A stretch of 48,875 nt of DNA, filler included, from Jimgerdemannia flammicorona (Eukaryota), in NCBI GenBank assembly GCA_003990765.1. It is 2 parts of 2 records of this genome, joined end to end, with 100 filler letters (N's around TTAATTAATTAA, not from the genome) between each part and the next. Parts side by side here need not be neighbours in the genome. Positions count along the whole stretch, not along the records: positions 1 to 24,390 come from RBNJ01000980.1; positions 24,491 to 48,875 come from RBNJ01000981.1. One strand, 5' to 3'. Under the pieces are notes generated by a model. The model ran no database searches. It worked only from the letters and a program-made list of their open reading frames with translations, and was not told where the DNA came from. Shown here piece after piece: positions 17,528-48,350 of this stretch. Numbering within the stretch: position 1 is the first letter of the stretch; each line of letters starts with the position of its first letter. Made by a program: the position numbers and the translations under genes.

Positions 17528-19493
17528 TGTAAGTGCACAACCTCCAAGCCACCGAAATTATACATTACCCTCTGAACAAGCCACTGAAATCACACACAAC
17601 CTCTGAACAAATCTGGAAATCACCTGCTTGATCACGAAGCTGAGTTAATATGAAGTCATAGAATACAAGATTTACACAAATGAAATCTTACCAATTAGGA
17701 CCAAATGTATATATACCGAGCACCGAGATGCATCAAATCAGAGAACCAAAACAAATAACAACTACAACTTCCAAACACACAAACATAACCACTGAGATCT
17801 ATATCCATATCCACACTAACATTTGGAATGCCATTGTCAACTGAGCCACACCCCCTCTACCCCTCATGAATATCTATAGCCTAGCACCCCTCTACTTCAT
17901 GGAAGCCCGATGGAATGCTCTGAACATGCTTAGTGAGGCCCACCGAATTGGACAAATCTCAAGCTACTACCAGATCGGCCACCTCCTGGAAGACATGATC
18001 AAATACCACTATGATACAGACATTACCCAGATGTCTCAACACCAGAAGCTCATCACCTGCAAACATTGAGAACTCTTCTATGAGTATAGCACCATTATTC
18101 CCCGCCTCCAAGTTACCACAGCTGAAATGGTTGCTACTCTGTCCTATGGTCAAATCAACGACATGATACAAGAACTCAACCACAAGTACCTCGAGTACGT
18201 TGAAACCACAGACAGAACCTTTCCACACTCCAATAATCATATTCTGCAAATGCCCCAAGTTGGATACATTATGAAGAACATCTACAATATAATCCACTTT
18301 GATAAAGATGAAGCAGAAGACAATGATCCCTCTGATGCCGACATGACCTCTAGTCAAGGATCTCTGCCAACCCTGATTACACCACCAACCTTGCCAATGA
18401 ACTTACCACAATTCATAACAGTATATGAGACTTATTGGGACAATGACCACTGGCACAAATACTAACCCATGTTCACTTCTGATTACTTCAACTACAATGA
18501 AGAAACCAGAGAACATGACCTGTACCTCCAGACAACTCTCAAGATTGAACCAACCACTCCACCACTCAAGTATGAGTGATATGAACCACAGCTACCAGCT
18601 TACTACAACCCTGCAACTCATAGTGCTGTAACTTACAGAAGGTATACAGACAGCGAATTCGATGAAAGTGAAGACGATACACCCCTCCTTCACCAACCAA
18701 CACCTTATCCAGCATATGAGACAGATGATGCTATTCTGTGAGATGGTGATGAAGTTCCAATGTATTATTATCTCAGCGAACAAAGAGAAGTAATCTGCGA
18801 ACCACTCTTCTTAGACAACTACTTCATCAGAGATGATACAATTGATGATGATATCATTGAAGACTACCTAGATAGTGCCTGAACCATAAATAGCCTAGCA
18901 GTTATAGTATAGTTAGATTAGCCTTATACTACATGACTGCATTCCAACTCAGCAGGCACTTAGTGCTACATCCATATTCAGCATAATCCAGATAGCCCCT
19001 CACTAGTATAAATACCCCCTCCCTCAGACCTCAGAATCTCAGACTCGAATACACAAGAACATTCCTGAATACTTCCCCACAACATCCCTTCACATAACTA
19101 CTCCTAGTATAGCAATATCATGAATAGCGAATAAATCTATTTAATAACCCACAAACCACTCTTAAGTAAATCCATTCTCCATTAGGTCCCACTCCTAACC
19201 CCATCATGAAATTTCCTAATTGGGTATTGTCTGCAGCAATATGCCAATTCAACTAAGCTGGTCTTAGTTTCTTGAACTTCCTGAAATATGGAAAATCCTA
19301 AACATCCAGAACTAGTCCAAAAAAGGACTTTGGTTGAGACGTCAACCCGATCTTGAAATCAATAAGTATAGAGGACATACTCCATATGAAATTGATCTTG
19401 ACCATAAGAAAATGGTCTTCCAGAACATCCAGAATATCTAGAAAATCTTTCCAGAACTATGTAACAGTTACCCTAAAAAGCAACCCTCTTATA
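17528..19493 (+). repeat. LTR2 of element B (1966 bp), shared between the two internal regions
   Basis: Preceded by a PPT and followed by a PBS (TGGTAGCAGTAG at 19497). Confidence 0.95.
17785..18882 (+). pseudogene. LTR-encoded accessory ORF, copy 2 (365 codons)
   Basis: One frame containing ORFs 17866-18069 and 18127-18465. The start is ATA where copy 1 has ATG, and it ends DYLDSA*. Confidence 0.75.
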
Positions 19494-19495
19494 AC

Positions 19496-22400
19496 TTGGT
19501 AGCAGTAGTTTATAATCCAATTCCACTTCAAGATGCTTCCTCACCCTGCTACAAACCCTTCTGTGAATTCCTACAAGTTGGTATAAAGTCCAACCTCTGG
19601 ACTGGAATTTATCCTGAACCATCTGACAATCTGGAGAGAATTGAACCTGATGTACAAGGACAATTTGACCTCCACACCTACAACAAGTGGGATAAACTTC
19701 ATTCAAAGAAAGAAGTACTCCGGTTAAACCAGCAAATAGGTGAAACCCTATTCACCGAACTCCTTGCACTACACCCAGCAAGTCAAGATGAAGAAGGTCT
19801 TATTGAAGCCTTCTTTACTCTTCTCAACAAGAGTTTTGTCAGCTCTATAAATCTGAGTGATCTAGGATAACCAGCAGCAGTCTTTCTAGCCTTAGTTTCT
19901 CATGACGCCCAAGCCTCTGTAGCCAAGTGGCTCAACTCTACTGACTTTTACTGTACCAGGACCAAGACCACATTATACTACTGATTCCAGAACAGTAAGG
20001 CCCACCATATTCTTAAAGAAGAAGCGAGAGAAACTCTTCATCAACTACCTGATCCTGAACCTGAAGCAGGCCCTGCTATAGCCCTACCTGAATCCAAAAC
20101 CAATACCAAACCTGAACTTGACCTTGAATTAAGTCTCTCCAAAATCAGATATACAACTGATTCTGTCTACTTTAATGCCGAGCAAACCCAATTACACAGG
20201 GACCAAACCAAAGAGGAGGAGGAGTATCTTACTGAATTCGATCCTGGATATACTACAGAAGGAGATGTACTCCCATCAGGACAGAATATACCTACACAAT
20301 AACAAACAGCTATCTATCAAGCCCTTACTCCAACTACTCCAGCAACTTACACAGACTCAAAGAACCCCATCACACTCTGCACCAGTACCTCAAGTAGTAC
20401 CAGTAACACCACTACCAGCAGTCCAACCACCTCCAGCAAACAACATGGCAAACCAACAGATTCTTAATCTCACAGCCCAAGTAGCTATAATAGCAGCAAC
20501 CATTACTGCCTTAGCTGAACAGACCCAACCTACCAAAAATCTGAGCCTACCTACCTTCAATAGTACTGCACAAGAAGTCCAAAGCTTCATTAGTGTAGTT
20601 GACACCAACTTTGAAGCCAATCAATGGACCAATGAGCGAGTTGCTGACTACATTCTGACAAACAATCAAGACTATACACTGGAACAACTCTTTACTACCA
20701 CTACAGCCTATGTCTGCCAAGTTGTTACATTCTTCTGAGGACTTGCTGAAGAATGGTGGTGAACCCTTCCTGAAAAACCCCTCACATAGGATACTCAACC
20801 TACAGTAGTTGCTCAGAATACAGCAAACAATGCCCCAGGATATGGAGCCCATTCTGCAGCCCCTGGACTCAAACAACTCATGATTGCTCAATACCGCAGC
20901 GAAACCATAATTGCCAAATCTCGAGTAAAACTTCACAACCTCAAATTTGATGTACATGGCAAAGAAGAATTTGAAACCTTCTGTACAAAACTCGAGTCAC
21001 TCCTGAACACTGTTGGCCTAGGATACATTGCCAATGATGAAGCATGAAATGGTATAAGAGCAGACTACTTATTCGATGCCCTGCCTGAATGGTTTACTAG
21101 AAAAATCCAAGAACAAGACTGCCTAGTTGGTTGTGACCACCAACAATGGTGTCTGGCAAGAATCAAGACTATGGTTAAGCAAATCCTAACAGCTGGACCA
21201 ATCCTGCTCCGAAGATAATTCAACAACAAGGAAAGAACTTAGACTAAGAAAGAAGAACCCAAGCATGAAGCATCCCAAGCTCCCTCAACATCCACCTCTT
21301 GGACACCTAGAAATCATGAACCCATCTAGCCAAGTACCTTCAAGAAACTTACTGAAGGCAAAAGGAACAAACTTTGAAGAAGTGGAGCATGCTTCTATTG
21401 CTGAAAGACAGGTCACATGGCCAGTGCCTGCCCTAACCAAAAACCCTGAACAGCAACAAGAGCAACTGTTACCACTCTATACCACCTCAACAACCTGACC
21501 ACCAGAACACTAGACTTTGTCAAGTTAAGACAAACTGCTAAGGCCCCAATCCAAAGAAGTCAGAAAGCAGCTGGATATGACCTGTATGCAGCTGAAGAAG
21601 CTACAGTTTCCAACTGAGAAGTCAAACAAGTCTACACAGGAATCAGCATCCAAATCCCTGAAGGACATGTTCAAAGAATATGCTGTCACAGCAGCCTAGC
21701 ATTGAAAGAACTCTCAGTAGAAGGAGGAGTCATTGACGAGGATTACATAGGTGAAATTATTGTCCTTATCTGAAACCACAGTTGGACACCCTTTAAGATC
21801 TCTATTGGTTTCTGCATCGCCCAGATCTTATTTGAAAAAATTAAGTCAATCCTGACAGTCAAGGAAGTCTCAGAACTACTGCCCACTATCTAAGGATCCA
21901 AAGGATTTGGCTCATCAAACAAGGCCCCAGCCCAACCTACCATGAGTAAAGAAGAACAATTCTATAAGAAGATTGAAGATGGATATGTACCAAGTGGCCA
22001 ATGCCCTCATGGCATTGGAATGTACTCTTCCCGAATGATTGATGATTGCTTCTCTTGTGTCAATGAATTGGCTCAAAGAAGAACCAACAGAAAGAAAGCT
22101 CCTATAACTGAAATCACTACCATTGGATCAGACAAACTGCTCACACTTAAGGCTTTTGTCAACCGAGCACCTGTCAAGATTATGATAGACAGTGGTGCCT
22201 CAGGTAACTTCATCAATGAAGAGACAGCCAACAGACTCAAGGTCTTTACCTCTCCAGTACAGCAAACTCAAGCAGTTGCTATGGCTGATGGAACCTCACA
22301 TGTTATTAGCAAAGAAGTCTACAATCTACTACTCCAAATTGGCAACTACTGAGTACATGTTACCCTCCAAATCATACCACTTCCTGACAATGAAATCATC

Positions 22401-24390
22401 CTTGGGACTCTATGGTTAAAACAAGAGAACCCCATGATCGATTGGGTAAACTATTCTCTGACCATCAAGAAAGGACACCACAACTTCAAACTGTAAGGCA
22501 AAAAAGACCCACTTAATTCTGGTGACCCTGGACCAAAGATCACCCACATCAATAAGTTACAACTTAAGAAATTGGCCAAGAAATGCCCACTCTTCGCCAT
22601 CTCCATCTGCCCATCCAAAGGAGAACCTGAGAATTCTGAAGAAGATTTTTCCAAAGTTGACAGCTGTGTCAGACCACTACTCCAGAAATTTCGAGACATA
22701 TTCCTAAAGAAACTCCCGAAAGGCCTACCTCCTAAACGAGCAGTAGACCATACCATCAAGACCATCCCAGATGCCAAACCAGCCTTCAAGTCAATCTACC
22801 ACATGTCTCTAAGAGAAATTGATGCACTCAAGAAAGAAATTGACGAACTTCTAGAGTAAGGATTCATCAGACCCAGTGTATCACCCTATGGCACACCAGT
22901 CCTCTTTATTGTCAAAAAAGGGAGAGACCTGTGAATATGCATTGACTACTGCAATCTCAATGAACAGACCATCAAGAACTGTTGCCCACTACTGAGGATT
23001 GATGAAATATTCGATAGACTTACCAACCCACAATTTATGAGCTCCTTCGACCTGCGAAATGGTTACTAGCAAATTGCTATGAAAGAAGAAGACATCTACA
23101 AGACAGCTTTCCAAACTTACTATGGACAGTTTGAGTTCCTGGTTATGCCCTTTGGCTTAACTAATGCCCCAGCAACCTTTCAGACACTGATGAATACCAT
23201 TCTGCATCCATACCTAGACAAATTTGTTGTTGTCTACATTGACGACATCCTAGTCTTCAGCAAAACCCTGGAGGAACATCTTGAACACCTTGAACTAGTA
23301 CTACTGAAACTCTGAGAAAACCAACTCTTTGCAAAACTTAGCAAGTGTGAATTTCTCCTGAAAGAAATTCAATTTCTTGGACACATTGTTACTCCAAATG
23401 AAATTAAAGTAGACCCCAGCAAAATCTCTGCAATCAAGGATTGGCCCAGACCCAAGAAGCTAAAAGACCTCTAGTCATTCCTGGGATTAGCAAACTATTA
23501 CAGGCAATTTGTTGCCAACTTTGCTAAAATCGCTACCGCCCTCACCCAAATGACCAAGCACAGCAAAAAACAAGAACAACCCTGGACCATGAAACAAGAG
23601 AAAGACTTCAACAATCTTGTAACTTGGGGACCCAAACAAGATACCACCTTTCAAGCACTGAAAGATGCCCTGATAACTACTCCAGTATTTCAAGCGGCAA
23701 ACCCTGCACTATCATATAAAGTTACCACTGATGCCTCTGACCTAGCCCTTAGAGCAGTATTCATGCAAGAAGGACACCCAGTGGCCTATCACTCCTGCAA
23801 GTTCAATGATGCCGAAATCAACTACACAACTCATGAGAAGGAAATGCTAGCCATTGTAGACACTCTGATCAAGTGGCGACTATACCTAGAAGGAGCACAC
23901 TTCACTATATTGACTGACCACAAGTCATTAGTCAACATCAAGACCCAGGCTACCCTTTCTCGAAAGCAAGCTAGATGGATGAAAGTCCTCACCAACTTTG
24001 ACTACGAAATCCAGTACCACCCTGGCAAGAAAAATATTGTTGCCGATGCAATCTCCAGACCACTAATCGAAGAGGTTATCCAAACTCTCACCTTGGTTAC
24101 AAACTCCATCCTGGAACAAATTATCACAGCATGTGTCAATGATAAGGAAGCTCAAGCACTACGAGAAATCCTAAATAGTGACAATGCTGACAAGTATACA
24201 CAGTATCATCAATACCAACTGAAGGACAATGCTATCTACTACAAAGACAGACTGTATGTCCCAAACAACCAAGACCTCCGAAGGACTATCCTATTCAAAT
24301 GTCATGATGCCCCTACAGCTGGACATTTAGGATTTGATAAATGTTATGAAGTTATCTCCCAAAACTTCTATTGGCCCTGTATGGCAGATC
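19496..24390 (+). pseudogene. B2 polyprotein from leader to integrase zinc finger, truncated by the spacer
   Basis: ORFs 21942-22352 (DSGASG), 23079-23315 (YIDD) and 23550-24390 (RNase H, CHD...GHLG). Colinear with B1. Confidence 0.95.
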
Positions 24391-24490
24391 NNNNNNNNNN
24401 NNNNNNNNNNNNNNNNNNNNNNNNNNNNNNNNNNTTAATTAATTAANNNNNNNNNNNNNNNNNNNNNNNNNNNNNNNNNNNNNNNNNNNN
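24391..24490. other. Artificial assembly spacer N44-TTAATTAATTAA-N44
   Basis: Symmetric Ns around a palindrome that has stops in all six frames; exactly 100 bp. Confidence 0.97.
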
Positions 24491-24510: not shown

Positions 24511-24731
24511 AGACATGAGTGTGTCCACAGGACATGAGTGTGTCCACAGGACATGAGTGTATCCTCAGGACACAGATAAACAATCCTGATCTGGTATCTT
24601 GGCTAATTATAAGTATGGCAGGTATGAGTAACTATGATATACTGGAAGTCACATCATGCTGAGTAAGTATGCTAATTGTTCGCATCATCTGGCTAAGTTA
24701 TAATTCAGGTGGTACGTTTTGGTCTGTTACA
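24511..24731 (-). repeat. Partial 3' LTR of element D, with 19-bp tandem repeats CAGGACATGAGTGTGTCCA
   Basis: Matches ~33635-33873 with only transition differences seen. Confidence 0.93.
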
Positions 24732-24770: not shown

Positions 24771-25280
24771 TCAGTCATCATCCCAATAGGCATAAACAGC
24801 TTCTGCATCTATACCTATTCCATCATCATCTGAGCTACAGTTACTCCATTCCAGGGGCTCTTCTTCTTCCTCAGGAAATAGGGTCTCCACTTGGTGAATA
24901 ATGCTGAGGTAGGTGGGCAGTGTCATCCTTTGAAGGTCATTCAGGGAAAACTGGGCCTGGATTAAGGCAGAAGAATTTCATTTATATATTGTATATAGTC
25001 TGTCTGCAGCAGTAGTGTTCCTTCTGTTCAGGCCAGGGGTGTTTTGGACATAGGCTAGGTCTGGGAGAGGAAGATTCTGCAATTGTTCTCTAATTGCATA
25101 ATATGCCTGCAGCTGGTGGATCTGAAGTAGCCTCTCGGCCAAAGTGAGGTTCTCTTGATGAACTCGGATTCTCTGAAGATAGGTTCTATTGGGTTCCCGG
25201 AACTGAGGCAGAGGAACTGGTAGGGCTTGGAGGGAACTGAGAACAAGAGTTTGGAGGCAGTTGTCAATTCTCTGATTCAT
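24771..25280 (-). pseudogene. 3' accessory ORF of element D (~170 aa)
   Basis: ORF 24978-25280 continues in frame past one TGA into an acidic tail (PEEEEEPLEW...YWDDD*). It lies between integrase and the LTR. Confidence 0.65.
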
Positions 25281-32115: not shown

Positions 32116-33873
32116 TGTAACGTGCCAGCTCAATAGAGGCAAATTACAAGGTTGGGGGTTGATGTAGTTTGGCATGAGCCCCCAGTTACTTTGTCAAAAA
32201 GCAACAAAATGTTTTAAGATTCCTGAGGTCCTTGGTGTTTAGCGGTATAATAGTTAAAGCTGGATATCTGCAAGCGATTTCCTTATTGGGACAGTTCTCT
32301 AGATATAGTAGCGATTTGTATGTCTTTTCCTTCTTGGGTCAACTGGGAATGGCACAATTTGTATATAGTGTGAGTGGCTTCCTTCTTGAGTAATGGGTGA
32401 TTTCTGTGTAGCGTGATGATCTCCTTGTGCATGACAGTCTGGCAATTTAGCAGTTCTCCTTATGCGATTTCTACATGACGATCTTGTGTAGCGCGATGAT
32501 CTCTATATAGCACGGTGGTTTCCAAAAGTATGCAATTTCTGGTATGACGGTCTGGGTGATATTCCTTATGCAGATGTTCTGATAATTCGGCGGATAACTC
32601 GATTTAGCTCACTGGGAATTGTATGGCATGGATTCTTCTTCTGGGAATAATGGCTCCGATAGTATGGATAATTCGAATAACTGGGAATAATGCTGGTGGT
32701 GGATTCTTCTCGGGCTCACTGGGAACGATGAATAACTTGGATATCGTGGTTTTGGCTTCAACTGAGAATACAGCGGGTAACTTGGAAATGGCGGATGATG
32801 CGGATTCTCCTGAATCGGTGGGCTTCTTGAAAACAGCAGCTTAACTGGGAATTTAACTCAGATGGCATGGATTCTTCCTGAATCGGCGGGGTTCTTCTGG
32901 GAATGCAGTGGATAACTCGAAAATGGCAGATGACATGGATTCTTCCTGAATTGGTGGGCTTCTTGAAAATGGCGGCTTAACTGGGAATTTAACTCGGATG
33001 GTGCGGATTCTTCCTGAATCGGCAGGGTTCTTCTGGGAATGCAGCAGATAACTCGAAAATGGCAGATGACGCAGATTCTTCCTGAATCGGTGGGCTCTAA
33101 CTGGGAAATGGGATGGTAGCTTGGAAAGGGTCTCTTGGCAAAGTTGCATCAAAGACTGGCTTCGTTTGCATGAACGGATCACTGCAAAGTTGCATCAGAA
33201 ACTGGCTTGGGCAAGGCAGCTTTCTTGGGGAGGTAGAGAATAACTTGGAAATGGCGGCTTATTTCTTAAGCGGCGGACTACTCAAACGGCGGCAAAGTTC
33301 TCTTTGAACTTAGACAGCAAATCTTCAGGCTTATCTGGCAAGTGAACCAATAGTTCCAAAGGCGGCAAAGTTCTTCCTCGAACTTGGCGGCAAAATCAGC
33401 TTTATATCGGAAAGTGGACCGGAGTGGAAAGGGGACCAATGCTCAATCTTTAGAGACTTCTTTGGTATTTATATTTCAGACTGAGGTTTTATTCACTCTC
33501 ATCTCTGGGGTAATTTATACAAGTTGGTTGCTATCTGATTACTATATGGCTAACTATAGATTTGCTATCTTCGGTAATGTTTGGGTGTATCCTCTGGGTA
33601 CAGGTGTGTCTATAGGACATAAGTGTGTCCACAGGACATGAGTGTGTCCACAGGACATGAGTGTGTCCACAGGACATGAGTGTGTCTGCAGGACATGAGT
33701 ATATCCTCAGAATACAGGTAAATAATTCTGATCTGGTGTCTTGGCTAATTATAAGTGTGGTGGGTATGAGTAACTATGATATACTAGAAGTCACATCATG
33801 CTGAGTAAGTATGCTAATTGTTCGCGTCATCTGGCTAAGTTATAATTCAGGTGGTACGTTTTGGTCTGTTACA
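32116..33873 (-). repeat. 5' LTR of element D (1758 bp)
   Basis: TGTAAC...GTTACA termini, TATA-like GTATAAATTACCCC at ~33508-33521, and internal tandem repeats. Confidence 0.9.
32770..33095. repeat. ~135-bp tandem repeat (~2.4 copies) inside the D LTR
   Basis: AAATGGCRGATGA recurs at ~32786, ~32921 and ~33057. The subunit GATTCTTCCTGAATCGG occurs five times. Confidence 0.85.
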
Positions 33874-34492
33874 ATATATACAAGTATATTTCTCCTAATG
33901 AGGTCTTGATAGACATAGTTTATTATTTACTGGAATAAAGTTAGTACATTGTAGAGTCTAAATGACATTCAGAGGTATTCATACTATTCTTATTTAGTAA
34001 TAAAGATTATCTTGTAGATATTATTCTTAATAATAGATATTACTTGGAATCCTTGAAACTGGTCAGTAGTGGTCATGAACTTGGCTTTTCTAAGAACATT
34101 GAGAAGGTCATCAATTCTTAGTAGTGGATAGGTATCTTTTATTGTAATCTTATTAAGTTTTCTGAAGTCTACAATTAGTCTCCATCCTCCTTTCTTTAGT
34201 ACTATGATTGCTAGTGAAACCCAGGGGCTTGATAAGGGTCTGATAATTTCATTTATATATTATTGTTCAAACTCAATCAGGTAGTATGGTGTTTGATAGG
34301 AGTATTGATGGATTGGTTTAGTATCTCCTATATATATAATATATTCTCTATATTGATATGGTGGAAAGTTATTATATGTAGTGGTAAATGTATCTTTATA
34401 TTCTTCTATCAACTTCTATATCTATTATTACTAATTCTTGATTAGAGTTGTTTTGATATTGACAGCTTTGATTACTGAGTCTTTCTCTCTAG

Positions 34493-34875
34493 TAGTGCTC
34501 CCAAACAAGTCAAATCAATTCGAATTGAATCGAATTGAGGGTTAAATGAGTCAAATCGAATTGGGGATTTTTCAATTCGAATCAATTCAAATTGAATCAA
34601 AAGTTGAATCAAATTGAGGGTCTAATTCGAACCCTAATTTTCAAAATGCAATAACTCAGCGTAACCTCATCCAAATTTAACATACTTTAGCTTGTTAGAA
34701 TCACATTAATACGGTGAATCTAACAAGCTAAAATACATTAAATTTGGATGAGTATTCATCGAGTTATTATATTTTGAAAATTAAGGTTCAAATCGAACTT
34801 CAAATTGAATTGGACCTTTGATTCGATTTGAATTGAATCAAATTGGACCCTTGATTCGATTCGTTGGGAGCACTA
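34493..34875. mobile_element. hAT-family MITE, 383 bp, fold-back structure
   Basis: TIR TAGTGCTCCCAA...TTGGGAGCACTA, perfect 8-bp TSD CTCTCTAG (34485-34492 / 34876-34883), GAATC arrays and a long central inverted repeat. Confidence 0.95.
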
Positions 34876-35279
34876 CTCTCTAGTACTGTCAGTCTCACTA
34901 GAGAGGGCTTGCTATTTTCCAAGAATTTAAAGACCTCTTCCTTGTAAGTATTTATCAGTGGTTCAAAATATCTCAATATTGTTCTTTTGAGAATTGTTAC
35001 TACTTCAAAGCTCAGGTTTTGAATAGAAATATAGATTAGTGACATCTGGTCATAGATTTATTTTTCAGTCAGGAGAAGGTAATACTTTTCTCAGAGTTCT
35101 ATTAATAGTTCAAATATCAGATTGTTAACATTTATAGGTAGGTATATATTAAGACTTCTTTATTGATATGGTTGAAGGAGGATATCTTTTCTTGCTTGAA
35201 TAGAGTAATAGATATATAGTTTCATTTAGCAGAACTGAGCTACTATTATCAAGTAAACTTCAATAGGTAGTTGAGACAT

Positions 35280-35695
35280 TCTATTAGTACTTCCAAAGCC
35301 TTCTTGTCCTCTCTTTATACTGCTAAGTTGGTTCACTTCTTAGATAATGAGCTATAATATCTTGATGAACAGAATTTGACAGATGGCTTCTAAGGGATTA
35401 AAGACTTGATAGTTTCTACTATTGTTATAAATAATAACTTTCAGAGGACCTTAGTAGTCCTGGTCAATGACTCCTCCTTCTAATGTAATTCCTTTGGCTA
35501 CTAGAGATGATCTTGATGCTAATTGTCCATAGTGTTCAGGTGGTATAGTAAGTATAATCTGAAGGTCAAAGGTTCTAGTGGTTCTGGGATAGAGTATTTC
35601 CTGATAGGAGAGACAGAGGTCATATTCTACTGACTCTTCTATCTGTATAAGCAGGGGTTGTATCCAAGGTGATAGCAGTTTAACTTGGATGATTT
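35280..35695 (-). pseudogene. dUTPase domain of element G
   Basis: SVEYDL, IPPEHYGQLASRSSLVAKGITLEGGVIDQDY*GPLKV, ICQILF, RGQEGFGST. Confidence 0.9.
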
Positions 35696-36415
35696 GCTGG
35701 ATCTTGAGGAATAATGTCTCAGTAGTTGCTATTGTAAGAAAGAATTCTATATATTCTGGCTTAAAGAATAGTCAATATTTGGATTTCTTATATAGTTGAA
35801 TTCAGTTTTTTCAAGTAGATCTAAGACTTTTATGAAGGAGAAGGTAAGGTTGACTCCTTGTTTGTCTTGGTGTGATCACCAATATCAATAAATGATAGCA
35901 AGAATTTCTAATAGTAGATTCCAGATAGAGGTCTTGTTCTTGACTTTATAATCTTCTTTATAATTAATCTCTTTGTATTTTCAACAGACTCAGCAGATTC
36001 AAGATTCTTGCAAAGTAGGGTTCTTTCTCTTAACTTGACTCTTATAAACATCATCACTAAGGTAAATACTTTGATATTTATACTAATAACAAATAAAGGT
36101 CTTTCTACAATCACAGTGTTCTTGTTTGATGAATTCCTCATTTCACTGTTTGACTTTTTTGCTTGTAGGATATCTCCTTCAATATTTATCATAGATGGGT
36201 AGAGTGATCTGAAGAGCTTAGGTAATAGTGTAGGTATTGTTATTATTGTCTTCAACTGTGAGAGTCTCTAAAGGTTGGTAAGAGAGAATCTTCTATTCTT
36301 CTTTGTAGGTCTTCTTGAAAACTTTGAGGGTAAGTGGTTGTATTTATATAAGAACTGAGGCTTGTTTTAACTCATCTTTATCTTTAATTACTGATATTGG
36401 GATCTTCTGAAGATC

Positions 36416-37208
36416 TGTAATAACTCTCACTTCTACCCCTCTCTTATCTTTTGGATAATTAGGGAAGTGGACTATTACTTAGGGACTTAGTACACAAAGT
36501 GTACCAAGAAGCCTTCAGTTTGAGGAAGTGCTTACTTGTAAGTAAGTGTAGTAGCAGTGCCTTCTATTTCAAAGGTCTTTCTCTATTGCCCTATTTTGAG
36601 AGTCTTGTTCTTTGCTGTGCACAGACTGAATTCACCTTGGAATTCAGGTTCAATGGGTTTACTTAAGTCTTTGGGGATTTATATACTGGTCTCAGTTCTG
36701 GCAAAAGTTAGCTAGGCTTCTGGAGTTTAGTCAGAAACACTAGAGTCACTTAGATGTCATTACTAAGACTTAGGGGAATGTGTGTATGTGGGGGAGGACC
36801 CGATTCTTGTATTAAGAACTGAACTAAAACTGCTTTATTTTGAGTGGAAACTGGGGGGTATTTATACAAGTTGGTCTGCGATTTCTGACTAAGTATGAGT
36901 GACTAATTTGGTAACTATAATGAGGTTTGTGATTGCGACCTTTGTTAGGTGGTTTTTGGCAAAAACAACTTTGTGATCAGGATCTCAATTACTAGACAAT
37001 GATCAGCTGCTATGGCAACTGTTGCTGCAGCACTGATTGTTGGGGATAAGCTGGATATCAATTTCCACATTGTTTTGCATCATTCACATCATTCATCATT
37101 CATAATTCATATATCGTGCTTTGTTTGTATGATGACATCATCGCTGCCAGATCACATGATCACTCATCTCATCATGTCCCATCTGTTCGTTCATTCACAT
37201 CTATTACA
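36416..37208 (-). repeat. 3' LTR of element E
   Basis: Colinear with 44780-45572; TATA at 36859-36866. Confidence 0.97.
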
Positions 37209-37219: not shown

Positions 37220-38052
37220 TTAGAAATGAACATCCTCATTGATTCAGAAATTGAGAACCAGGGGAGAGAAATGTGGGGAATCCTCCTCTGGGTTGTTGCC
37301 ATCTTCTTCAGTAACAGGGAGGGTGGTTGCTGATGGTTTGCTGTCCAGAGTGGAGAAGTCAATGAGGTCTGCACATGGTTCTTGCATAGAAATGGGTGCT
37401 GGTGTAGGAGTTCTCCATCTGATGTAGTTGGGGCCATCCAAGTAGGGTTCTTGGTCCTCATGCCTGAGAATATCCATTTAGATAGGCAGTCCTTCAAAGA
37501 GGTCAGAGAGGTCTTGGAGCCATTGGTCTGGGTTATTATTCAGGAGGGGACTCCAGTAGGGTTCGCAGTCAGTAGACTGAAGAGAGATCCAGAAGTTGGC
37601 TTCTTGGGCTACCTTGATCTCAAGCTCATCAACCTTGGAGAAAGAGAGATTTTGGAAATCCTTCAGTTGGACATAGTTGAGGTTGGAGATTGCAAAGAGT
37701 GTATAGTGCATGATTTGCTGGCAAGTCTTTGCTCATGTCTATCCAGGTGGGTCCAGTCAGAGACCTGGTCAGTAGATAGATTCTTTGCCCATTGGAGGAG
37801 TTGATGGCCAATTTTATATTCATGCCAGATCTCTAGGTGGCTGGTAGCAAGGTAGGCCCTTTTAATGACCTTGCAGTGGTTGAGAACATAATGTTCTAGA
37901 TCCTGGCTGGAGAGGTTAAGGGCCTCTGAGTGGCAGTTTCTTCCTTGGATAGCAACCTGGATGTGTCCAAAGAGGCAGTCAACCTGGCTTGGGAGGGGCT
38001 AACTATGGCAGGCAGTTTGGTGGTAGGTAGCTTGGTTGCAGGTAGCAGGCAT
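37220..38052 (-). pseudogene. 3' accessory ORF of element E (~270 aa), frameshifted at ~37715
   Basis: ATG at 38052, then ...HLEIWHEYKIGHQLL..., then ORFs 37478-37711 and 37244-37477. Homologous to 47535-48350. Confidence 0.75.
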
Positions 38053-38124: not shown

Positions 38125-38274
38125 CTTATTCACCCATCTAGTGTGACCTTCCTTTGGTCATGCTTTCTAGCAAAATGTGTGACCTATTGCTGTAAACAGA
38201 GCATGTGCTGATCACATGAGAAAATTCTGATTTCCAAGATATCATCACTTATAGTTATGGTTACACAGGGTTAA

Positions 38275-38519
38275 CAGGTCTTGGTCCTCTTTTTTTTTGT
38301 CTGGTTGGTGCATTTGCAAGGACTGGCCATCCTTGTCTAGGGCAAGGGCTCTCATTGTCATGGTTGGGGGTTTGAACCTCTCAGAAATAGACTTTTCTTA
38401 TAATCCGAGGCAATTCCTAGTAACAATATCTGTCACATGGATGGACTTAGACTGGTTTTGACATTATTGGCTTTCCTAAGTTCCATATAAAGCATTCATC
38501 ATCATATAGCAGAGATGAC
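38275..38519 (-). ncRNA. Conserved non-coding element, candidate structured RNA (copy in E)
   Basis: Nearly gap-free nucleotide alignment to 46997-47244 of element F, with several hairpins in the CpG-restored consensus. RNA function is inferred only. Confidence 0.45.
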
Positions 38520-38719
38520 ACAGGTGGCATGAAATAGAGTTGTTCAAATGCATTTTGCTGTAATATGCTAGACTGTCCTTTACTCAGACTTCTTCATGTT
38601 GGTTATCTATAGTGTTCCTTTTTTCACAATGTTTGATATTATATGTTTCCAGATAAAATATGTAGTGTCCTTCTGCTCACTGTGTGCTCCAATACTTAGA
38701 GCTGTAGTTCTTTCCTTTG

Positions 38720-41700
38720 CTGGGGAGTGAGTGTTTCCATGTAGTCCTAGAGGGCTTCGCATGCATTCTTCAGGGCTTCTTCTTTTTCCCAGGTGGCATC
38801 ATGGGTGGGGTAACCCTTCCACTTGATCAGGATAAACTGCTTGACTGTTTTGGAGTATTTGCAGACCTTGTGGTCAAGTACTTCCTCAATTTTAAATTCC
38901 TCATGATCATTGATCCTAATTGGGAGTGGTGGTGGAACTGTATGCTCAGGGAATAGATTCTCATAGTAGTTCACTAATTGGCTGATATGGAATACTTGGT
39001 GTACTTGGATATTGTGGGGGAGTTGCAACTTGTAGTTGACTTCACTGATTTTTTTCCATGATCTTGTATGGTCCAATTCTTCTAGTGCAGAGTTTCTTAG
39101 CTGGTTGTTGTGCTAGAGTGTCTGGGTAGAGGTGGTCTGTTCTAAGCATGACCATATCACCAATGTTATAATGTTATAGGAGACTTCTCTTTGCTTCAAG
39201 TTTGTATACTTAATCTGATAGTCTTGTGCTTCTATGAGGGCATCTCTTGTTATTTGCATAAGATCAGAAATGGTCTCAGCCAGATCTTGGGCTGCTGGGA
39301 CTGCTGATTTTGCTGTAGTACTTGGGGTCCTTGGGTGTTGACTGTGGTTCAGGAAGAATGGAGTCTTCTTCATAGAAGTTTGCTGACTATTATTGTAGGC
39401 AAACTCAGCATGGGCTAGGTACTTGTCCCAATCATTTTGCTTGTAATAGCAGAAGATGCTAAGTATCTGTTTGAGAGTCCTGTTGGTTCACTCAGTTTGC
39501 CCATTAGTCTGAGGGTGGTAGGTAGTAGAGAACTTCAGCTTAGTTCTATGGAGAGAGAAGAATGCCTTCTAAAAGTTACTTGTGAACTTGGCATCTCAGT
39601 CAGATACAATAGTACTAGGCATGCCATATAGCCTGAATACTTGATTGAGGAAAATCTTGGCAATCTCTGGTGCTATAGTGGTGGTCTTGGTTGGTGCAAA
39701 ATGGGCTTGCTTACTTAGGTGGTCCACAAATACCACAATGACATCCCATCCTGCCTTGGTCTTGGGGAGTTGGACAATGAAGTCTATTGCAATCTGATCC
39801 CAGTTGTGGCTCAGGATAGGTAAGGGTTGCAGGAGTCCTGCTGGTAGCTTGTTACCACTTTTGAATCTTTGGTACATCTTGCATGAGGCCACAAAGTCTT
39901 TGATGTCCTTGGTCATCTTTGGCCAGTAAAACTCTCTTGAGAGGAGATTGTAGGTTTTTTCAAAACCAAAGTGTCCTGCCACAGGAGTGTCATAGAGTTC
40001 CTGCATGATCTTGAGTTGCAGAGTATCATTGTTGGGTATAACTACTCTATCATGGTCTTGGTAGATAAGTCTATCATGGTAAGTGAATCTCTTGACCATT
40101 TGCCTCATGGGTTCTGGGACCTTGGCTTCTGGGTCTTGGCAGAATTGAAGGAATTTCATCAGGGAGCTGTCTTGCTGGTAGCCAATCTTGATCATTTGGG
40201 TGAGATCTCCAATTACCTTGACCATGAAGACAAGTTCATCTTCCATATACCTGGAGAAACCATCAGCCACATGGTTGGTTTTGCCAGAGATATACTTAAT
40301 TTCCATATCAAAATTAGTAATGATTTCCATCCAGCAGGTTTGTCTGTAGGTCAGCATGGGCTGTGTGTGAATATACTGCAGTGCATGGTGATCAGTATAG
40401 GCCACAAATAGTTGTTCTAGAAGGAAATGTCACTATTCCTGGAGTGCAGTAACAATGGTCAGGAGTTCCTTCTCATGGGTGGTATACCAGATCTCAGCTG
40501 GCTTGAGCTTTTGGGAAAGATAGGCCACTGGGCAGTCCTCTTGGCTAAGCACTGCTCCAATAGCAATGTCAGAGACATCTGTGGTCAGGGTGAATGGTCT
40601 GATAGGGTTAGGTGTAATTAACACTGGAGCCTTGGTAAGGAGTCTTTTGAGATGGTCTATAGCCTGGGTGCATTCTGGGGTCCATTCAGCTTTGATGTTT
40701 ACACCTTTGCAGGCCAGGCTGGTCAGTGGGGCTGTAATAGCAGAGTATTCTTAGATAAACCTTCGGTAATAATCAGCAATACCCAGAAAGCACTAGAGTA
40801 GCTTGAGGGTAGTAGGGATGGGAATATTCTTAAGGGCTGATACCTTTCGGAGATCTACATTGATTCCTTCAGCAGAGATGATATGTCCTAGGTACTCTAT
40901 CTGGGCTTGATAGAACTTACACTTGCTCATCTTGGCATAGAGCTGGTGTTCTCACAGAAGGGTCAGTATCTGTCTGAGGTGGGTGTAGTATAGCTCTACT
41001 GTCTCACTATAGATTAGTATATCATCAATATACACAAGGACACAGATGTTGAGGAGTGGTCCAAAGATGTCATTCATCAGATACTGGAATGTTGCTGGTA
41101 CATTGGTCAATCCAAAGGGCATGACTCGAAACTGGTAGTGTCCAAACTGTATTTGGAAAGCTGTCTTCTCAATGTCCTTTTCATCAATGAGAATCTGGTG
41201 GTAGCTATTTCACAAGTCTAGTAGGGAAAAGGTCTTGGCCTTAAAGATTTGGTATAGCAACTCATCAATCCTAGACAAGGCATATTGGTTCTTGATGGTG
41301 ATCTTATTGAGGGCTCTGTAGTCAATACACATTTGCAGAGAGCCATTCTTCTTCTTGACAAATAGAATGAGGGCTCCAAATAGAGAGCAGCTGGGTTCAA
41401 TGTATCCTTGGGTCAGTAGTTTGGTCAAATCATCCTTGAGGGTCTTGAGTTCAGGTTGGGCCAGTTGGTAGATACTCTTGTATGGGGGTTCAGACTCTGG
41501 GATAAGATCAATTCCATATTGGATTTGGCACTTAGGTGGGAGTCCTTGAGGGTCTTGGAATATATCTTAGAATTCTTCAAACAGTTCTTGAGCTTCTGTT
41601 GGGATTGGGCTACTTGTAGCTTCAGTGACTTCTTGTACTATACAGATGAAGTAGGTGTTTCCCTTTTTTCGAGAGAGTCTCTTCATTTAAATGGCAGAGA

Positions 41701-44700
41701 TGATTTCGATTCCTTGGTGGTTGGTACCTTCCTGTGGTGTCAGGGTGATCTTTCTGCCTTCATGGGTCAGGTTAACCTCATTGGTTCTCCAGTTGATGTC
41801 TGGGTTGTGCTGGGTCAACCAGGCTTTTCCTAAGATAATATCTTATTCTGGGAGGTCTACAATACTGAAGTCCAACTTTTCTTGATATTTGCCAAACTTG
41901 AGCAAGAGATCCTTGCAGATCTTGGTCAATGGTGCAGTTTTTCTATCACTAAAGATAACACTTCTTTTCTCAGTGGCTGGCCTGCCTCGGGCTCCAATCC
42001 TCTTCACAGTCTTTGTGTTGATGTAGTTTCCAGTAGCACCACTATCAAGCAAGACATTGACATTCTGTCCATGGACTTGGCCTGTGAACTTGATGCAACT
42101 GTCCTCCTTCTTAATGGTGTTGAGCTCTTCATCTTCATTGTTGTTGTCCCAATTGCTATCAGTCTCCTCGAAGTCAGTTTCTCCCCATCCTTCACAAGGA
42201 GGGTTGTCTTGTTTGGGTTCCTCAGTCTGTTGAGCTTGGCATTTCTTGGATTGAATTTTGAAAACTTTGGAGAGGCATGCATGGCATTCACCAACATATT
42301 CCATGCAGTACATTTGAATAGAATGAGAGCATCATCTACATAGTACATATCCATCTGTAATTCTCTTATACCAGTTTTCATCATCTTCCTTCATGGTAGT
42401 GACCATTTGACTGAGAGGTTTGTTGGTTGATTCAAACCCTTTCTTGCCATGGTCTGTCTGGGAGAGTTCAGAGACTTCTTCAATGGTGAGATCTTTATGG
42501 ATTTCTTCAATGATTGCTTGGGCAATTCTTTGGCTTCAAATGATGTGTCTCCAAAATTTCGTAAGATGACACAGATTTCGCCAGTAAATCCTTGATCAAC
42601 TACTTCTCCTCCTAGTCCAATGTTGAACTCTTTGGCTAGGCTGCTTCGCTCAGCAAGACAGATGTATGTACCTTTGGGAGCTTGCATTACAATCCCTGTT
42701 CACACTGTAGCATTGGTACTTGGTGGAATTGTGAGGTCTTGGCTGCTGTAGAGGTCACATCCAGCATCAGTTAGGTGGGCCTTAGTGGAGATGGTAGCCT
42801 TATATCATATCTTCTGTACTTTGATGATATTCTTGGGGTTCTTCTTTTCTGGACCTTTTCTAATTACTGTAATGTTCTGGTTACTGGGTTCACCTGTTCT
42901 GTTCTTCTTCTCAGAGTATTAGAATGAGATGTGTCCTGCCTTTTTGCAGATGAAGCACAATCCTTTTTTGCAGAGCTGCTTCTTTTCATCCTCAGTGGGA
43001 GGTCTGGGTCCTCTGGGGTTTCACTGGTTCCTTTGCTCATTCCTTTGATCATATCTTTGGTCACTTCTTTGATCATTTCTCCTAGTAGAATTCCTTCTGT
43101 CTTGGTTATCCTTCTTGTATTCTTGATTTTGTGGGGCTTGTGCAGCAAGGATTTCACGGGCTCTTCTTTGTACTTGGGCAAAGCACCATGAGTAGTGGGG
43201 GCATCCTTGGGAAAGACCTTGTTCCTTGATCTTCTGAGTAAGCCAGTCTGGTAGGGCTGCAAAAAGGTGGTTGGCTCTAATACCATTGATGGCCAAGTTG
43301 TTCTCCTGGTAGGTGAGTCCAACAGTTTTGAGGTAGGCATCCATTCTGGTGGCAAAGGTTTCTAGGTCCTCTTTGCCATTCTTGTGGAACTTCATCTGGG
43401 AAAGCTTATTCTAAGTTTCTTGTATGTAGGCCACATTTTGGAATTTTGTCAGTAGTAAGGCCTTGAGTCCTGGGCCTACTTCATAGTCATCCCAACCTGG
43501 TCTATTGTTGGTAGGTGCTTGTCCATTGACTTGACAGCAGGCTTCCCAGGTTACTGGGTGTTGTTCCAAGGTTTGCCAGAATTTGGTTGCTGTTCCAGTG
43601 AAGAATGTGGCTACTGTTTCTACTTGTGCTGCTGATGTGGCAAACAGTTGTTGAAGAGTGCTGTTCTGGTTGTTGGTGAGCATTCCTATAGATACTCAGT
43701 TATCATTCCATTGGTTTTCTCAGTAGCCTGTATCAACTGCATTGATGAAGTTTTCAATGTTACTGTTTTTTTCACTAAATGTTGGGATTCGCAAGGTCTT
43801 GGTTGGCTTGTTCTGTTCAGCAATCTGTCCTACTATCTCTACTAGTGCTACTAGCTGGGTAGTCAGTGCTGCAATGTTGACATCTACCATTGTGTTGACT
43901 ATTGGTGGTGGGCCTATTGGGGTAGATTCTCCTGAAGATTGTTCTGCTTGGTGGGGTTGTGGTGCTGTATGACTTGGGGTTACTTAGTTCCTGGATATCA
44001 AGTCAAAGAGTCCTGTGAGAGAGGGTAGACCAAACCTCTATATAGGTGGCTGAGTTGGTTCTGGGGTCTGATCTTCTTGACCTGTGGTTCTTTGGTAAAT
44101 TTCTAAGCCTGCTGTTCCTAGTTAGCTATCATCAGACTGGTAACCTGTAGAGACTTCGTCTGACTCCTTTCCCTGATGAGATAGTGCATCCTCATACTGA
44201 CTAGGTCCTTCAAAGAGGATATCAGTCTCTGGCTAGGTAGATGGGCCTGCTTCTTGTTCAGCAGTAGGGGATGGTAGGCCTTTTTGCTTGTTCTTGTACC
44301 CGGTTATAGCAGAGGCATAGTATACAACTAGCCTGTAGTATAGAGAGGTCTTGGTTGGGGTATGATGATATCTATCAGAGATAATCTACTTGGCAGCTAC
44401 TTCTCTTATAGCAGGTGGTGTGATATAATCTAGAAAATCCTGGATGGCTACAGCAGTAGATTCTGGGGTCCTAGTAGTTCCAATATATCCTCAGAGGAGT
44501 TCATAGAACCTATGGTGGCTGACAATATTCCTAAGTCCTGGGTGGTATGTCCTAAAGGCCTGGTATAGATCCTTGTAAGCTTGGTCAATTACAAGCTGGT
44601 GGGTCCTTGGGTCTGTGGTTTCCTGGTACCACCTGGTCCTAATGGTAAGGGTTTCTCTGGCTCTGGTTTGAGGATCCACAGTTGATTCTGGAGGTTACTC

Positions 44701-44777
44701 CTGTCCAAAGTTGGTCTTATTCCAACTTCAGGAGTGTGTTCTTGGTGCCTTCTTGGCTGGTAATCCACTGCTACCAA
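38720..44777 (-). pseudogene. E polyprotein: leader-gag-dUTPase-protease-RT-RNaseH-integrase-chromodomain
   Basis: Gag ATG at 43890, CFICKKAGH, dUTPase ~42430-42830 (ERSSLA, VVDQGFTGEI), VLLDSGATGNYI, VYIDDIL, TTDVSDIAIGAVL, IAIDFIVQLP and chromodomain EEFKIEEVLDH...IKWKGYPTHDATWE. Confidence 0.95.
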
Positions 44778-44779
44778 GT

Positions 44780-45572
44780 TGTAATAACTCTCACTTCTAC
44801 CCCTCTCTTATCCTTTGAATAATTAGAGAAGTGGACTATTACTTAGGGACTTAGTACACAATGTGTATCAAGAAGCCTTCAGTTTGAGGAAGCGCTTGCT
44901 TATAAGTAAGTGTAGTGGCAGTGTCTTTTGTTTCAAAGGTCTTTCTCTGTTGCCCTATTTCAAGGGTCTTGTTCTTTGCTATGCACAGACTGAATTCACC
45001 TTGGAATTCAGGTTCAATGGATTTACTTAAGTCTTTGGAGATTTATATACTAGTCTCAGTTCTGACAGAAGTTAGCTAGGCTTCTAGAGTTTAGTTAGAA
45101 ACACTAGAGTCACTTAGATGTCATTACTAAGACTCAGGGGAATGTGTGTGTGTGGAGGGGGACTTGATTCTTGTATCAAGGACTGAACTAAAACTGCTTT
45201 ATTTTGAGTGGAAACTGAGGGGTATTTATACAAGTTGGTCTGCGATTTCTGACTAAGTATGAGTGACTAATTTGGTAACTATAATGAGGTTTGTGATTGT
45301 GATCTTTGTCAGGTGGTTTTTGGCAAAAACAACTTTGTGATCAGGATCTCAATTACTAGGCAATGATCAGCTACTGTGGCAACTGTTGTTGCAGTGCTGA
45401 TTATTGGGGATAAGCTAGATATCATTTTCCATATCATTTTGCATCATTCGCATTATTCATCATTTGTAATTCATATGTTACACTTCATTTGTATGATGAT
45501 GTCATTGCCACCGGGTCACATGATTGCTTGTCTCATCATGTCCCATCTGTTTGTTCATTCATGTCTATTACA
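44780..45572 (-). repeat. 5' LTR of element E
   Basis: Followed on the minus strand by the PBS; TATA at 45223-45230. Confidence 0.97.
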
Positions 45573-46996
45573 AGATCAAGGATTTGACAGTTACTACAGT
45601 CATCTCTTAGTGAGTAGAAATGATTACAGTGTTTATACATATCTTTCTGTTACACTATCTACCAGATCTCCAGATCTTATGCCCACCCTCTATTCAGATC
45701 CACCATTAATCATCACATTTGAATTTTTTTCCAGATTAGCAGTCCCCTTACTATCAGCAGTTTTACTCCCCCCAGCTACTACTTTCTCAGCCCTGCTACC
45801 CACACTGCTTCACCAGACCCTGCAGCCATTACCATCTTCTTACTCTTTCTCAGTCAGCCCTCTTATCTAGTTGTCAGATATCTCCCCTTCACCTTGTCCA
45901 CGAAGTTCATCCTCTTAGTCTTCTGTTCCCTAGTACTGCCTCCTCTCCTTTTACATTCTCTAGTCAGTAAGCCCTGCATACTTCCCCCCAAGCTATGACT
46001 TCTTCCTATATACTACTAGTCAAATATACTAAGATTACCCTGCCTAGTATATACTTTAGAATACTCAACAGTTGCTATGTTACTAGTACCTATTTTTCAA
46101 AAATAATATCTTGAGTATTGCCAGAAGTTTGTATAACCTAAATGTTACCAGAGAAAGGTATCTGACTTGGGAATAGATATCATTGACCCTTTGCTAGTAA
46201 CTAGCTAGAGAAAATATTATATTCTCACTATTGAAGATTATCTGATAAAATAGTCTAAAGTCTTTGCTATTGAGACTGCTGATGCTCAGACAATATTGAG
46301 ATCTTATATAATAAAATTTTCAGCTACCATAATATCTCCAAGGAAATCATCACAGACCAAGACTGGGAATTTATCAAGTATGAAAATCTTTGCAGCTAAC
46401 TTTAAAATCAAACTGCATCCAACAATAGTCTATTACCTATAAGTAAATAGACTTACTAAATAAATGAACCAGACCATCAGTAAGACTAGAGACCAATTGA
46501 ATTAGGATATCTACCTCTTAGTAATCTTATTTAGTATCTATACTTTAAAAGCTACTGCTACCCATCAGACCTCTTTCTATTTAGTATATAGCTAAGAAGT
46601 ACAAGATTCAGCTAAATCAATCTAGCTAAATTTGGTAAAACAGGTCACTGAAGAGATCACTCAGTTATATGAAGTATACTAGTAAGTATAAGGATTTATT
46701 ACTAAGATATAAGAATACCAAAAGAAGTACTATAACTATAAGACTGATCTTGAACCTCTACTTATTGGACAATAAGTCTTAGTGTACCATACCATCATAG
46801 AAGGAAACTGGAGTACTAAACTTAAACTGAAATAGAAAGGACCCTATCTTATTTACCAAAAGTTCACAAACCATACTTATTAACTCAAGACTCTGAATAG
46901 AGTTATACTCAAGACCAAGATATACTGCAATCATATAAGACCTTATTACTCAGCAGAAGCAAAATATATTTAAATAACTCTATTTACTCCATTTGT

Positions 46997-47244
46997 ATCA
47001 TCTCTATTAGAGAATGATAGATATTTCATATAGAACTCAAGAAAGCCAATATTATTGAAACCAATCTCAAGTTCATCTATATGATAGATATTACTACTAG
47101 AAATTACCTTAGATTATAGAAAATATTATTTCTGAGAGGTTCAAATTCTCAGCCATGATAATGAAAGCCCTTATCCTAGATAAGGATGACTAGTTCTCAC
47201 AAATGCACCAATAATCCAAAAAAAAAAAAGAGAATCAAGACCTG
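46997..47244 (+). ncRNA. Conserved non-coding element, candidate structured RNA (copy in F)
   Basis: Homologous to the reverse complement of 38275-38519. Confidence 0.45.
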
Positions 47245-47534
47245 CTATTTCTATATAACTATCTCTACTGAGAATAACTCTAATTTTACAAGGAGTAGAT
47301 ATAACAACATCTTAAAAACTGATAACATCAAAAGCTAGAAGATAGCTCAGACTTTATAAGCCTCTGGTTATAAATTGTAACTCAACTATAACTTATAGTG
47401 ACCTCAGTAGTATACTACTCCAAATTAGGTAACTCTACTCTCTAGACCAAAGAAAAAGACCCTTAGAATATAAAAGAGATATCAAAAGGAGTATAAGACA
47501 TTATCTATAAATAAGAAACTCACTATAAAATAAA

Positions 47535-48350
47535 ATGCCTACTATTTGCTAAACTGTAAGATCAAAGAATCACTAAGATTTATCAGTCCAATATCAGATA
47601 TTCTCTGATATCAAAAGAGCTATAAGAATATATATAAGAAGAACTCCAAGCCTAAACCTCTTTATAAGAGACCCATATCACTATACTCTCAACTACTATA
47701 AAATAGAAACAAGAATCTCTACTACTATCAAGTGCCTCTGGATGTGGTAAGAATACAAGTTGAGGCATCATCTCTGCCAAGATCTCTTACAGACCAGCTC
47801 TCAAGAAATTATAGATACCATATACCTGGTTAGGTATAAATAGAAGTTAGTTAAGAGAGTTTATCAGATCTTCAGGTATATACTCTGGACCATTCCCAAC
47901 TTGGAATATTTCAAGATTTCAGATATTCAAGAACTAATAAGCTACTCTATAGACCATCTTGAAGAAATAATTGCAGAAGAAGCCCAGTCTACTATTATAG
48001 TTAAGAGTAATGAGGTTCAAGATCTTTGGAATCTCATTCTAAAAGACAATCCAGATCAGTTTCTTCAAGGTCTGATTGTATTGTTCTAAGGCCCTCCTCT
48101 GAGAGTCCAATACTCTCAGAATTCTACAGATATACTCTACTTTGTAGATAACAATACTATTGATTGAAGATCTCAAAAACCAAAACAGAGTGAATCACTT
48201 ATTTCATAGGAAGAAGATCTTAACAACCTTCTGAAGGAATATATAAGTCTCCTATTATTACCCATAGAGCTCTTCACTAACCTCAGTATAACTGTAAAGA
48301 ATGCAGAAAATGATTTGGCTAGACTCTATGAAGAAAATAAGAAGAAGGAT
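47535..48350 (+). pseudogene. 3' accessory ORF of element F
   Basis: ATG at 47535 is in frame with ORF 47901-48089: MW*EYKLRHHL...RVYQIFRYILWTIPNLEYFKISDIQEL...NPDQFLQGL. TATAAATA at 47506. Confidence 0.7.

Follow-up and report, generated by a model that had tools for sequence, protein, structure and literature searches.

What are the additional open reading frames (ORFs) that follow pol in long terminal repeat (LTR) retrotransposons of Jimgerdemannia flammicorona, and do they belong together? The question is raised by a stretch of 48,875 nucleotides (nt) from this genome (assembly GCA_003990765.1), which comprises parts of records RBNJ01000980.1 and RBNJ01000981.1 joined through 100 filler letters and is referred to below as the window. 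It contains nested old Ty3/Gypsy elements. An earlier analysis by eye (the sequence-only reading) had reported extra sense-strand ORFs on the 3' side of pol in four of these elements, B, D, E and F, and had proposed that they encode one accessory protein family. Translation finds the ORFs, named ORF3 here, at the sites reported, with two corrections: the F frame starts at 47535 as claimed but extends to 48419 rather than 48350, and the E frame (38052-37244) is broken by a frameshift near 37710. On balance, we favour the interpretation that they are the decayed remains of a true third gene carried by Ty3/Gypsy LTR retrotransposons of the fungal type, with a probable shared module.

Intact relatives of ORF3 and selection

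All ORF3 copies in the window carry in-frame stops and are dead. Intact relatives are found elsewhere. A word-index protein search with the B-type ORF3, among proteins of near length, returned a sole match (1 of 354 candidates, E 1e-92). This protein, P0001, is 247 amino acids (aa) long, contains no stops, is 62% identical to the C part of B ORF3 and has the same C-terminus. A second protein, P0002, represents an intact 128-aa N-terminus, 82% identical to B ORF3, and begins with MTTEIY at the very start placed by the sequence-only reading. A HMMER profile search of 1.84 billion representatives yielded three proteins below E 0.001 (P0001, P0002 and P0003), two of which are true relatives. The third, P0003, was rejected as a relative: it is a 436-aa protein made of a six-fold repeat, and its relevance is doubted. 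The repeat unit, LSFDKIADFIEKLN, is similar to the stretch LSYGQIDDMIQELN of B ORF3 (E 9e-5 when the repeats are summed); LSFSKVDEL-like stretches occur in E, F and D at the place aligned with this stretch of B.

For the E-type ORF3, a word-index search with the C part gave none among 154 candidates. A search of metagenomes with the E/F alignment confirmed one of 206 pattern matches, a contig (L001) with an intact E-type ORF of 308 codons from stop to stop, or 291 aa when read from MPAL. This ORF is 57% and 53% identical to the two E frames and 36% identical to F. No relative was confirmed among the 92 metagenomic pattern matches obtained with P0002, and none of the E ORF3 was found in viral contigs. 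Over the 253 codons aligned between E and L001, the nonsynonymous and synonymous divergences (dN and dS) are 0.325 and 1.55, respectively. Identity at codon positions 1, 2 and 3 amounts to 68%, 76% and 53%. The resulting dN/dS ratio of 0.21, obtained for the E-type from E versus L001 only, is far from the value near 1 that the sequence-only reading had named as evidence against its proposal, and indicates that the E-type ORF3 evolved under purifying selection. Taken with the intact relatives (P0001, P0002 and the L001 ORF), it bears out the claim that these elements have accessory ORFs beyond gag and pol.

The relationship between the E and F frames leaves no doubt. Their products match in blastp with E values of 6e-17 and 7e-9, and the Smith-Waterman score of 253 compares with 34.6 +/- 5.3 for shuffled sequences (z 41; 0 of 1000 shuffles reach the score). 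The motif NPDQ(W/F)LQ(D/G)L, pointed out earlier as common to E and F, is indeed in both and is also present in L001. From these comparisons, the E and F ORF3s are certainly homologous. They should not be taken as independent witnesses for a wider family, because their tails form one lineage (see below).

A probable N-terminal module common to the three ORF3 types

The ORF3 protein consists of an N-terminal portion of about 110-140 aa and, behind it, a strongly acidic one with many Pro, Tyr and Asp residues. Whether the N-terminal portion is common to the B-, E/F- and D-types was examined with profiles, the decoy set being 972 overlapping windows of 200 aa from all six frames of the stretch. 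When these were searched with a hidden Markov model (HMM) built from E, F and L001, the best three non-self matches were N-terminal windows of the B ORF3, from both copies (E 0.3, 0.33 and 1.2). The matches cover HMM positions 10-144 in the same register as the earlier by-eye alignment, and 7 and 15 of 3000 shuffles reach their scores. A second HMM, combining E/F/L001 with the N-terminal module of B, gave D ORF3 windows as its best two non-self matches (E 0.56 and 0.57; next decoy, 2.9), with 7 and 12 of 3000 shuffles reaching the scores. Here too the register is that seen by eye, LQAYYAIREQL falling on YxIGHxL and AADRLYTIYK on AxKxxxxF. The profile shuffle p is about 0.002-0.005 for B and for D. 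Used alone in phmmer, L001 placed B2 (the second B copy) first among non-self windows (E 1). The B alignment (five rows) and the E/F/L001 alignment could be joined by hhalign over 88-118 columns, once more in the by-eye register. In module windows chosen post hoc, Smith-Waterman comparison gave z 2.9 for B-E (15 of 1000 shuffles) and 1.8 for D-F (66 of 1000). A motif likewise defined post hoc, VY(x1-2)YWD(D/N)D, is restricted to the B1, B2 and D ORF3s in the whole six-frame translation.

Several results weigh against a common module and agree better with a different explanation, namely, that three unrelated accessory genes (B-, E/F- and D-type) came to lie in one permissive slot, bounded by pol and the 3' LTR, and resemble each other in helical composition. 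When whole ORFs are compared by Smith-Waterman, the B-D, B-E, B-F, D-E and D-F pairs are all at chance (z -0.9 to 1.1). The hhalign probability for B against E/F/L001 is 1% (P 0.046-0.05), and among 120 controls with shuffled columns, 3 score as high; against D, E/F/L001 gives E 0.46 and B gives E 0.15, the latter in a different register. The reverse search fails as well, the B HMM ranking E 48th and F 54th, and phmmer with P0002 or D does not rank other ORF3s first. Single-family HMMs see D at chance level (354 of 3000 shuffles for E/F/L001, 156 of 3000 for B). All absolute HMM scores are low (5-6 bits), the mono-residue shuffles may flatter helical proteins, and B1 and B2, being copies, count once. 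Nor does the large library search bear on the question, as the B ORF3 profile used there kept 272 of 365 positions and had lost the N-terminal columns that make up the shared module. Furthermore, the lengths differ (365 aa for B, about 290 for E/F and 169 for D) and the types do not align with each other in their C-terminal halves; with the E/F/L001 HMM, the B window 18001-18600, from the C-terminal part, scores E 3. In bdelloid rotifers, LTR elements are known to have captured extra ORFs independently, as described in the available text of PMC5408684.

Against three unrelated genes stands the fact that targets specified beforehand outranked about 950 decoy windows in each of two profile searches run separately, with alignments that keep one register and begin near the N-termini. 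Besides, the chromoviruses B and E are related to each other and have their domains arranged alike (see below), and an ORF in the same slot of both is most simply explained by inheritance, because the two elements share their architecture. We therefore regard three unrelated genes as a serious but, on the whole, unlikely explanation, and the B, E/F and D ORF3s as probably carrying a distantly homologous N-terminal module. A module of about 110-140 aa common to the B- and E/F-types is likely; that D has it too is a step less secure, although still the better guess. The proposal of one family in four elements has thus fared unevenly. Its E-F part holds in blastp and Smith-Waterman comparisons and against shuffled controls, its B and D parts fail in pairwise tests at the level of whole ORFs, and the profiles support both weakly but consistently.

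One further match emerged from the 972 windows. P0002 shows a 35-aa likeness to the N-terminus of the E gag protein (about 44500-44620, minus strand), involving the B segment HQKLIARKHRELFYEYSTFIPRL (phmmer E 0.26-0.38). This match had not been specified in advance and was set aside as probably fortuitous.

ORF3 as a separate cistron and the tail shared by E and F

The distance from the end of pol to the start of ORF3 is 472 nt in B, about 670 nt in E and about 580 nt in F, and these spacers have stops in all three frames. The MP(A/T) start is conserved in E, F and L001. The spacers and the conserved start show ORF3 to be a separate cistron 3' of pol, distinct from gag and pol. At the other end, the E ORF3 stops about 40 nt from the 3' LTR, next to the purine tract AAGGAGGGAAGAA, and the D ORF3 ends 40 nt from the 3' LTR of that element. 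A second alternative would make ORF3 a C-terminal extension of Pol, produced by frameshifting or readthrough and serving the integrase, for example as a tethering module in the manner of a chromodomain. The arrangement in D is in keeping with such a role: ORF3 overlaps the end of pol by about 17 nt, its ATG being in a different frame, and takes the place that the chromodomain has in B and E. An acidic tail could conceivably bind histones. However, the 470-670 nt with stops in all frames separate pol from ORF3 in B, E and F, a chromodomain is already present in B and E, and the start codon and first residues are conserved both in E, F and L001 and in B1 and P0002. A fused form was not found among longer proteins in the B ORF3 search (0 of 761 candidates; weak evidence). 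The extension model is hence very improbable. Finally, chance open frames in decayed 3' untranslated regions, which could account for the stops in all window copies and for a B1-B2 protein identity (84-86%) close to the expectation of neutral decay at 9% nucleotide divergence, can safely be dismissed in view of the intact relatives at 53-82% identity, the dN/dS of 0.21 with the third codon position least conserved, and an E-F protein similarity that persists where no nucleotide alignment across ORF3 is found.

While the ORF3s of E and F are homologous, their pol genes are not of one type. The integrase remnant of F resembles that of D (Table 1) and has no match to E or B at E <= 1e-3. From the last F pol codons onward, the sequence becomes E-like, with a conserved non-coding block followed by the E-type ORF3. 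The block has stops in all frames in both E and F, and its 3' end is recognisable, in part, in L001 (positions 1-105). Relative to E, G>A or C>T changes in F make up 42 of the 66 differences between the two blocks, a pattern that suggests decay by deamination or by a process akin to repeat-induced point mutation (RIP). RNA folding of the block reveals no unusual stability (z -0.10). Identification of the block as a central polypurine tract was considered and dropped, as its A-rich end is unlike the 3' tract. Since the blocks are 77% identical and ORF3 itself gives no detectable nucleotide alignment, the block is better conserved than the gene it precedes; it is a putative control element for ORF3 acting at the DNA or RNA level.

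The E-type tail (block and ORF3) thus stands behind two unrelated pol types, the chromoviral one of E and the D-like one of F, and the claim that ORF3 is retained in both kinds of lineage can be upheld for the E-type. The tail looks like an exchangeable cassette, because the F integrase matches D only while the F tail matches E. Block and ORF3 would then have been swapped between two lineages, one chromoviral and one D-like. A bolder version, in which a portable 3' cassette made of the control block and an ORF3 regulator with its own subgenomic message recombines between unrelated Gypsy lineages of one host, we consider improbable. If true, it would make these LTR retrotransposons of the fungal type "complex" elements, in the way that some retroviruses are called complex.

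The elements themselves are arranged as follows. In element B (plus strand), LTR and internal region alternate in a tandem array (LTR-internal-LTR-internal), one period measuring about 8262 nt; the segments 9802-16128 and 18064-24390 are 90% identical, and the array (9802-24390) is cut off by two runs of N, 24391-24434 and 24447-24490. Its domains occur in the order gag, dUTPase, protease, reverse transcriptase (RT), RNase H, integrase and chromodomain, and a primer-binding site, TGGTAGCAG, is found at 11224 and 19497. The tail of an older B copy (4608-5166 and 9802 onward) is interrupted by a hAT-like insertion (5167-9801). Element E (minus strand) has 793-bp LTRs (36416-37208 and 44780-45572) with 91% identity and a 5-bp duplication, AGATC, and shows the domain order of B, chromodomain included. 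Element D (minus strand) is bounded by 220-bp LTRs (24512-24731 and 33654-33873) with 94% identity and encodes dUTPase, RT, RNase H and an integrase without chromodomain. Of element F (plus strand), an AT-rich remnant survives that is truncated at its 5' side and starts at about 46150.

Domains were assigned by a Pfam scan of 167 stop-to-stop pieces of at least 55 aa, out of 266 in six frames, the others being 63 plus-strand pieces (24500-45300) and 36 minus-strand pieces (10145-24001). In Pfam terms, B and E have the protease-RT-RNase H-integrase order and the C-terminal chromodomain characteristic of chromoviruses; no chromodomain was found in D or F by the scan or by translation. The division into chromoviral (B, E) and non-chromoviral (D, F) elements made by the sequence-only reading can therefore be kept.

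Table 1. Coordinates of ORF3 copies and associated features in the window
Feature	Position	Strand	Remarks
B-type ORF3, copy 1 (B1), 5' part	4865..5166	+	begins with ATG; resumes at 9802 beyond the hAT-like insertion
B-type ORF3, copy 1 (B1), 3' part	9802..10621	+	continues the 5' part
B chromodomain, end of pol	17148..17312	+	Pfam Chromo 5.9e-15
Spacer from end of B pol (17312) to B ORF3	17313..17784	+	stops in all frames
B-type ORF3, copy 2 (B2)	17785..18882	+	365 codons, 4 in-frame stops, ATG mutated to ATA
D-type ORF3	24771..25280	-	169 codons, 1 in-frame stop; best non-self match of the E/F/L001+B profile
E-type ORF3 of element E	37244..38052	-	two frames, 38052-37711 and 37708-37247; 2 in-frame stops
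Conserved non-coding block, E	38272..38559	-	288 nt, 77% identical to F 46958-47247; 220 nt upstream of ORF3 ATG
E integrase SH3 domain and chromodomain, end of pol	38750..39112	-	Pfam Chromo 8.1e-11, SH3_Tf2-1 2.2e-8
F integrase remnant, D-like, no chromodomain behind	46150..46957	+	translation; 32-41% identity to D integrase
Conserved non-coding block, F	46958..47247	+	begins at last F pol codons; 288 nt upstream of ORF3 ATG
E-type ORF3 of element F	47535..48419	+	heavily mutated, 7 in-frame stops ahead of the terminal stop

Some additional features of the window deserve mention. The insertion in the B1 ORF3 is a hAT-like DNA transposon (minus strand): it has a hAT dimerisation domain (4e-14) and a weakly matching BED finger, its ends read TAGTGCTCT, and the 8-bp duplication of its target has diverged. 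At 34491-34630 lies a stretch of 140 nt with 74% similarity to the end of this transposon. Another remnant, G (33874-36415), is interrupted by E and D. A dUTPase domain lies 5' of the protease in B (13512-13736), D (28486-27737), E (42699-42335) and remnant G (35771-35454). The region of element F (45573-48875) has 31% GC, and where it can be aligned with E the differences are strongly skewed to G>A and C>T, a bias that suggests the aftermath of RIP-like or methyl-cytosine deamination decay. A 50-nt unit is repeated in three to four tandem copies at 48411-48593, overlapping the last bases of the F ORF3 and extending downstream. Tandem repeats are also present within D, at 32808-33079 (136-nt unit) and around 33600-33690. 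An Rfam scan of the whole window gave no matches.

Properties of the ORF3 protein, its possible role and known systems

The acidic C-terminal tails noticed earlier are confirmed by calculation: the net charge ranges from -7 to +8 in the first 140 aa and from -10 to -34 in the remainder, and the overall pI is 4.0-4.9 in the little-decayed sequences. A hydropathy scan also agrees with the earlier statement that signal peptides and transmembrane segments are lacking, the top 19-residue value being below 1.0 in all but the degraded F sequence. Judged by these properties, the ORF3 protein is not env-like and does not appear to be an obvious nucleic-acid binding protein. The ORF pieces match no Pfam family at E <= 0.01; at E <= 10, the L001 ORF3, P0002, P0001 and D pieces retrieve only DUF7879 (E 0.14). 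Sequence searches of the Protein Data Bank (PDB) returned a designed armadillo repeat (E 0.005, built up from weak stretches that recur) and ATP synthase b (E 0.1-0.5), both judged to be noise of helical composition, and nothing with the B alignment. No confident match to a characterised retrotransposon ORF, a finding that the sequence-only reading had named as counting against its proposal, was obtained in the Pfam or PDB searches. In the ESM Atlas, the L001 ORF3 falls on unnamed clusters only (best score 0.92), recognition being below a useful level. AlphaFold models have a mean predicted local distance difference test score of 37.2 for the L001 ORF3 and 33.9 for B ORF3 and are unusable; the helical N-halves in them are not evidence.

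A possible scheme for expression would have ORF3 made from a subgenomic message, generated either by splicing or from an internal promoter, for which the conserved block 220-290 nt upstream of the ORF3 ATG would be the candidate. In D, the ORF may be read through coupling to pol or by a frameshift from it. The protein would act in trans, as a regulator or adaptor of the element. That it is an acidic, transactivator-like protein or one that binds chromatin, with the acidic part serving as an activation or histone-binding region, is a speculative and rather doubtful extension of this idea, drawn by analogy. Whatever its exact role, ORF3 would represent a non-enzymatic accessory protein under selection, present in chromoviral and non-chromoviral Gypsy elements and apparently swappable together with its upstream block. 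It would be a new participant in the way such elements control their own expression or cope with silencing by the host, and annotators would gain a new marker for these Gypsy families, there being no Pfam model for the family and almost no relatives in large protein libraries.

An extra, unexplained ORF has been drawn in fungal Ty3/Gypsy elements before ("add. ORF", legend of Figure 3 in PMC2864245, 2010), in a paper that also describes dUTPase-bearing fungal chromoviruses. Like ORF3, it is an additional ORF of fungal Ty3/Gypsy elements; the available text gives no sequence, position or family for it. Beyond this legend, no description of ORF3 was found in the accessible text of the literature searched, PMC2864245 and PMC3248453 included. 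The LTR retrotransposons of bdelloid rotifers have captured additional ORFs that, according to the available text of PMC5408684, are common to diverse retroelement types. The E-type tail is similarly shared across element types, in a different host and with the likeness being one of description only. We conclude that ORF3 is a real accessory gene of Gypsy elements and one that looks undescribed.

Few LTR retrotransposons have extra genes, and those that occur are mostly env-like or enzymatic. The env-like ORF3 of errantiviruses and of Athila-type Gypsy elements is likewise a third ORF between pol and the 3' LTR. Env-type products have a signal peptide and a transmembrane anchor; in contrast, the ORF3 described here is acidic, shorter, and without a hydrophobic segment or a Pfam match. 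The Tas/Bel1 transactivator of foamy viruses is the product of a 3' accessory gene with an internal promoter and contains an acidic part. ORF3 differs from it in having an N-terminal part that is not basic, and the PDB searches brought up no credible sequence or structural likeness of ORF3 to any entry. By analogy only, however, a 3' accessory gene preceded by a conserved block and encoding a protein with an acidic part may work in much the same way as Tas/Bel1.

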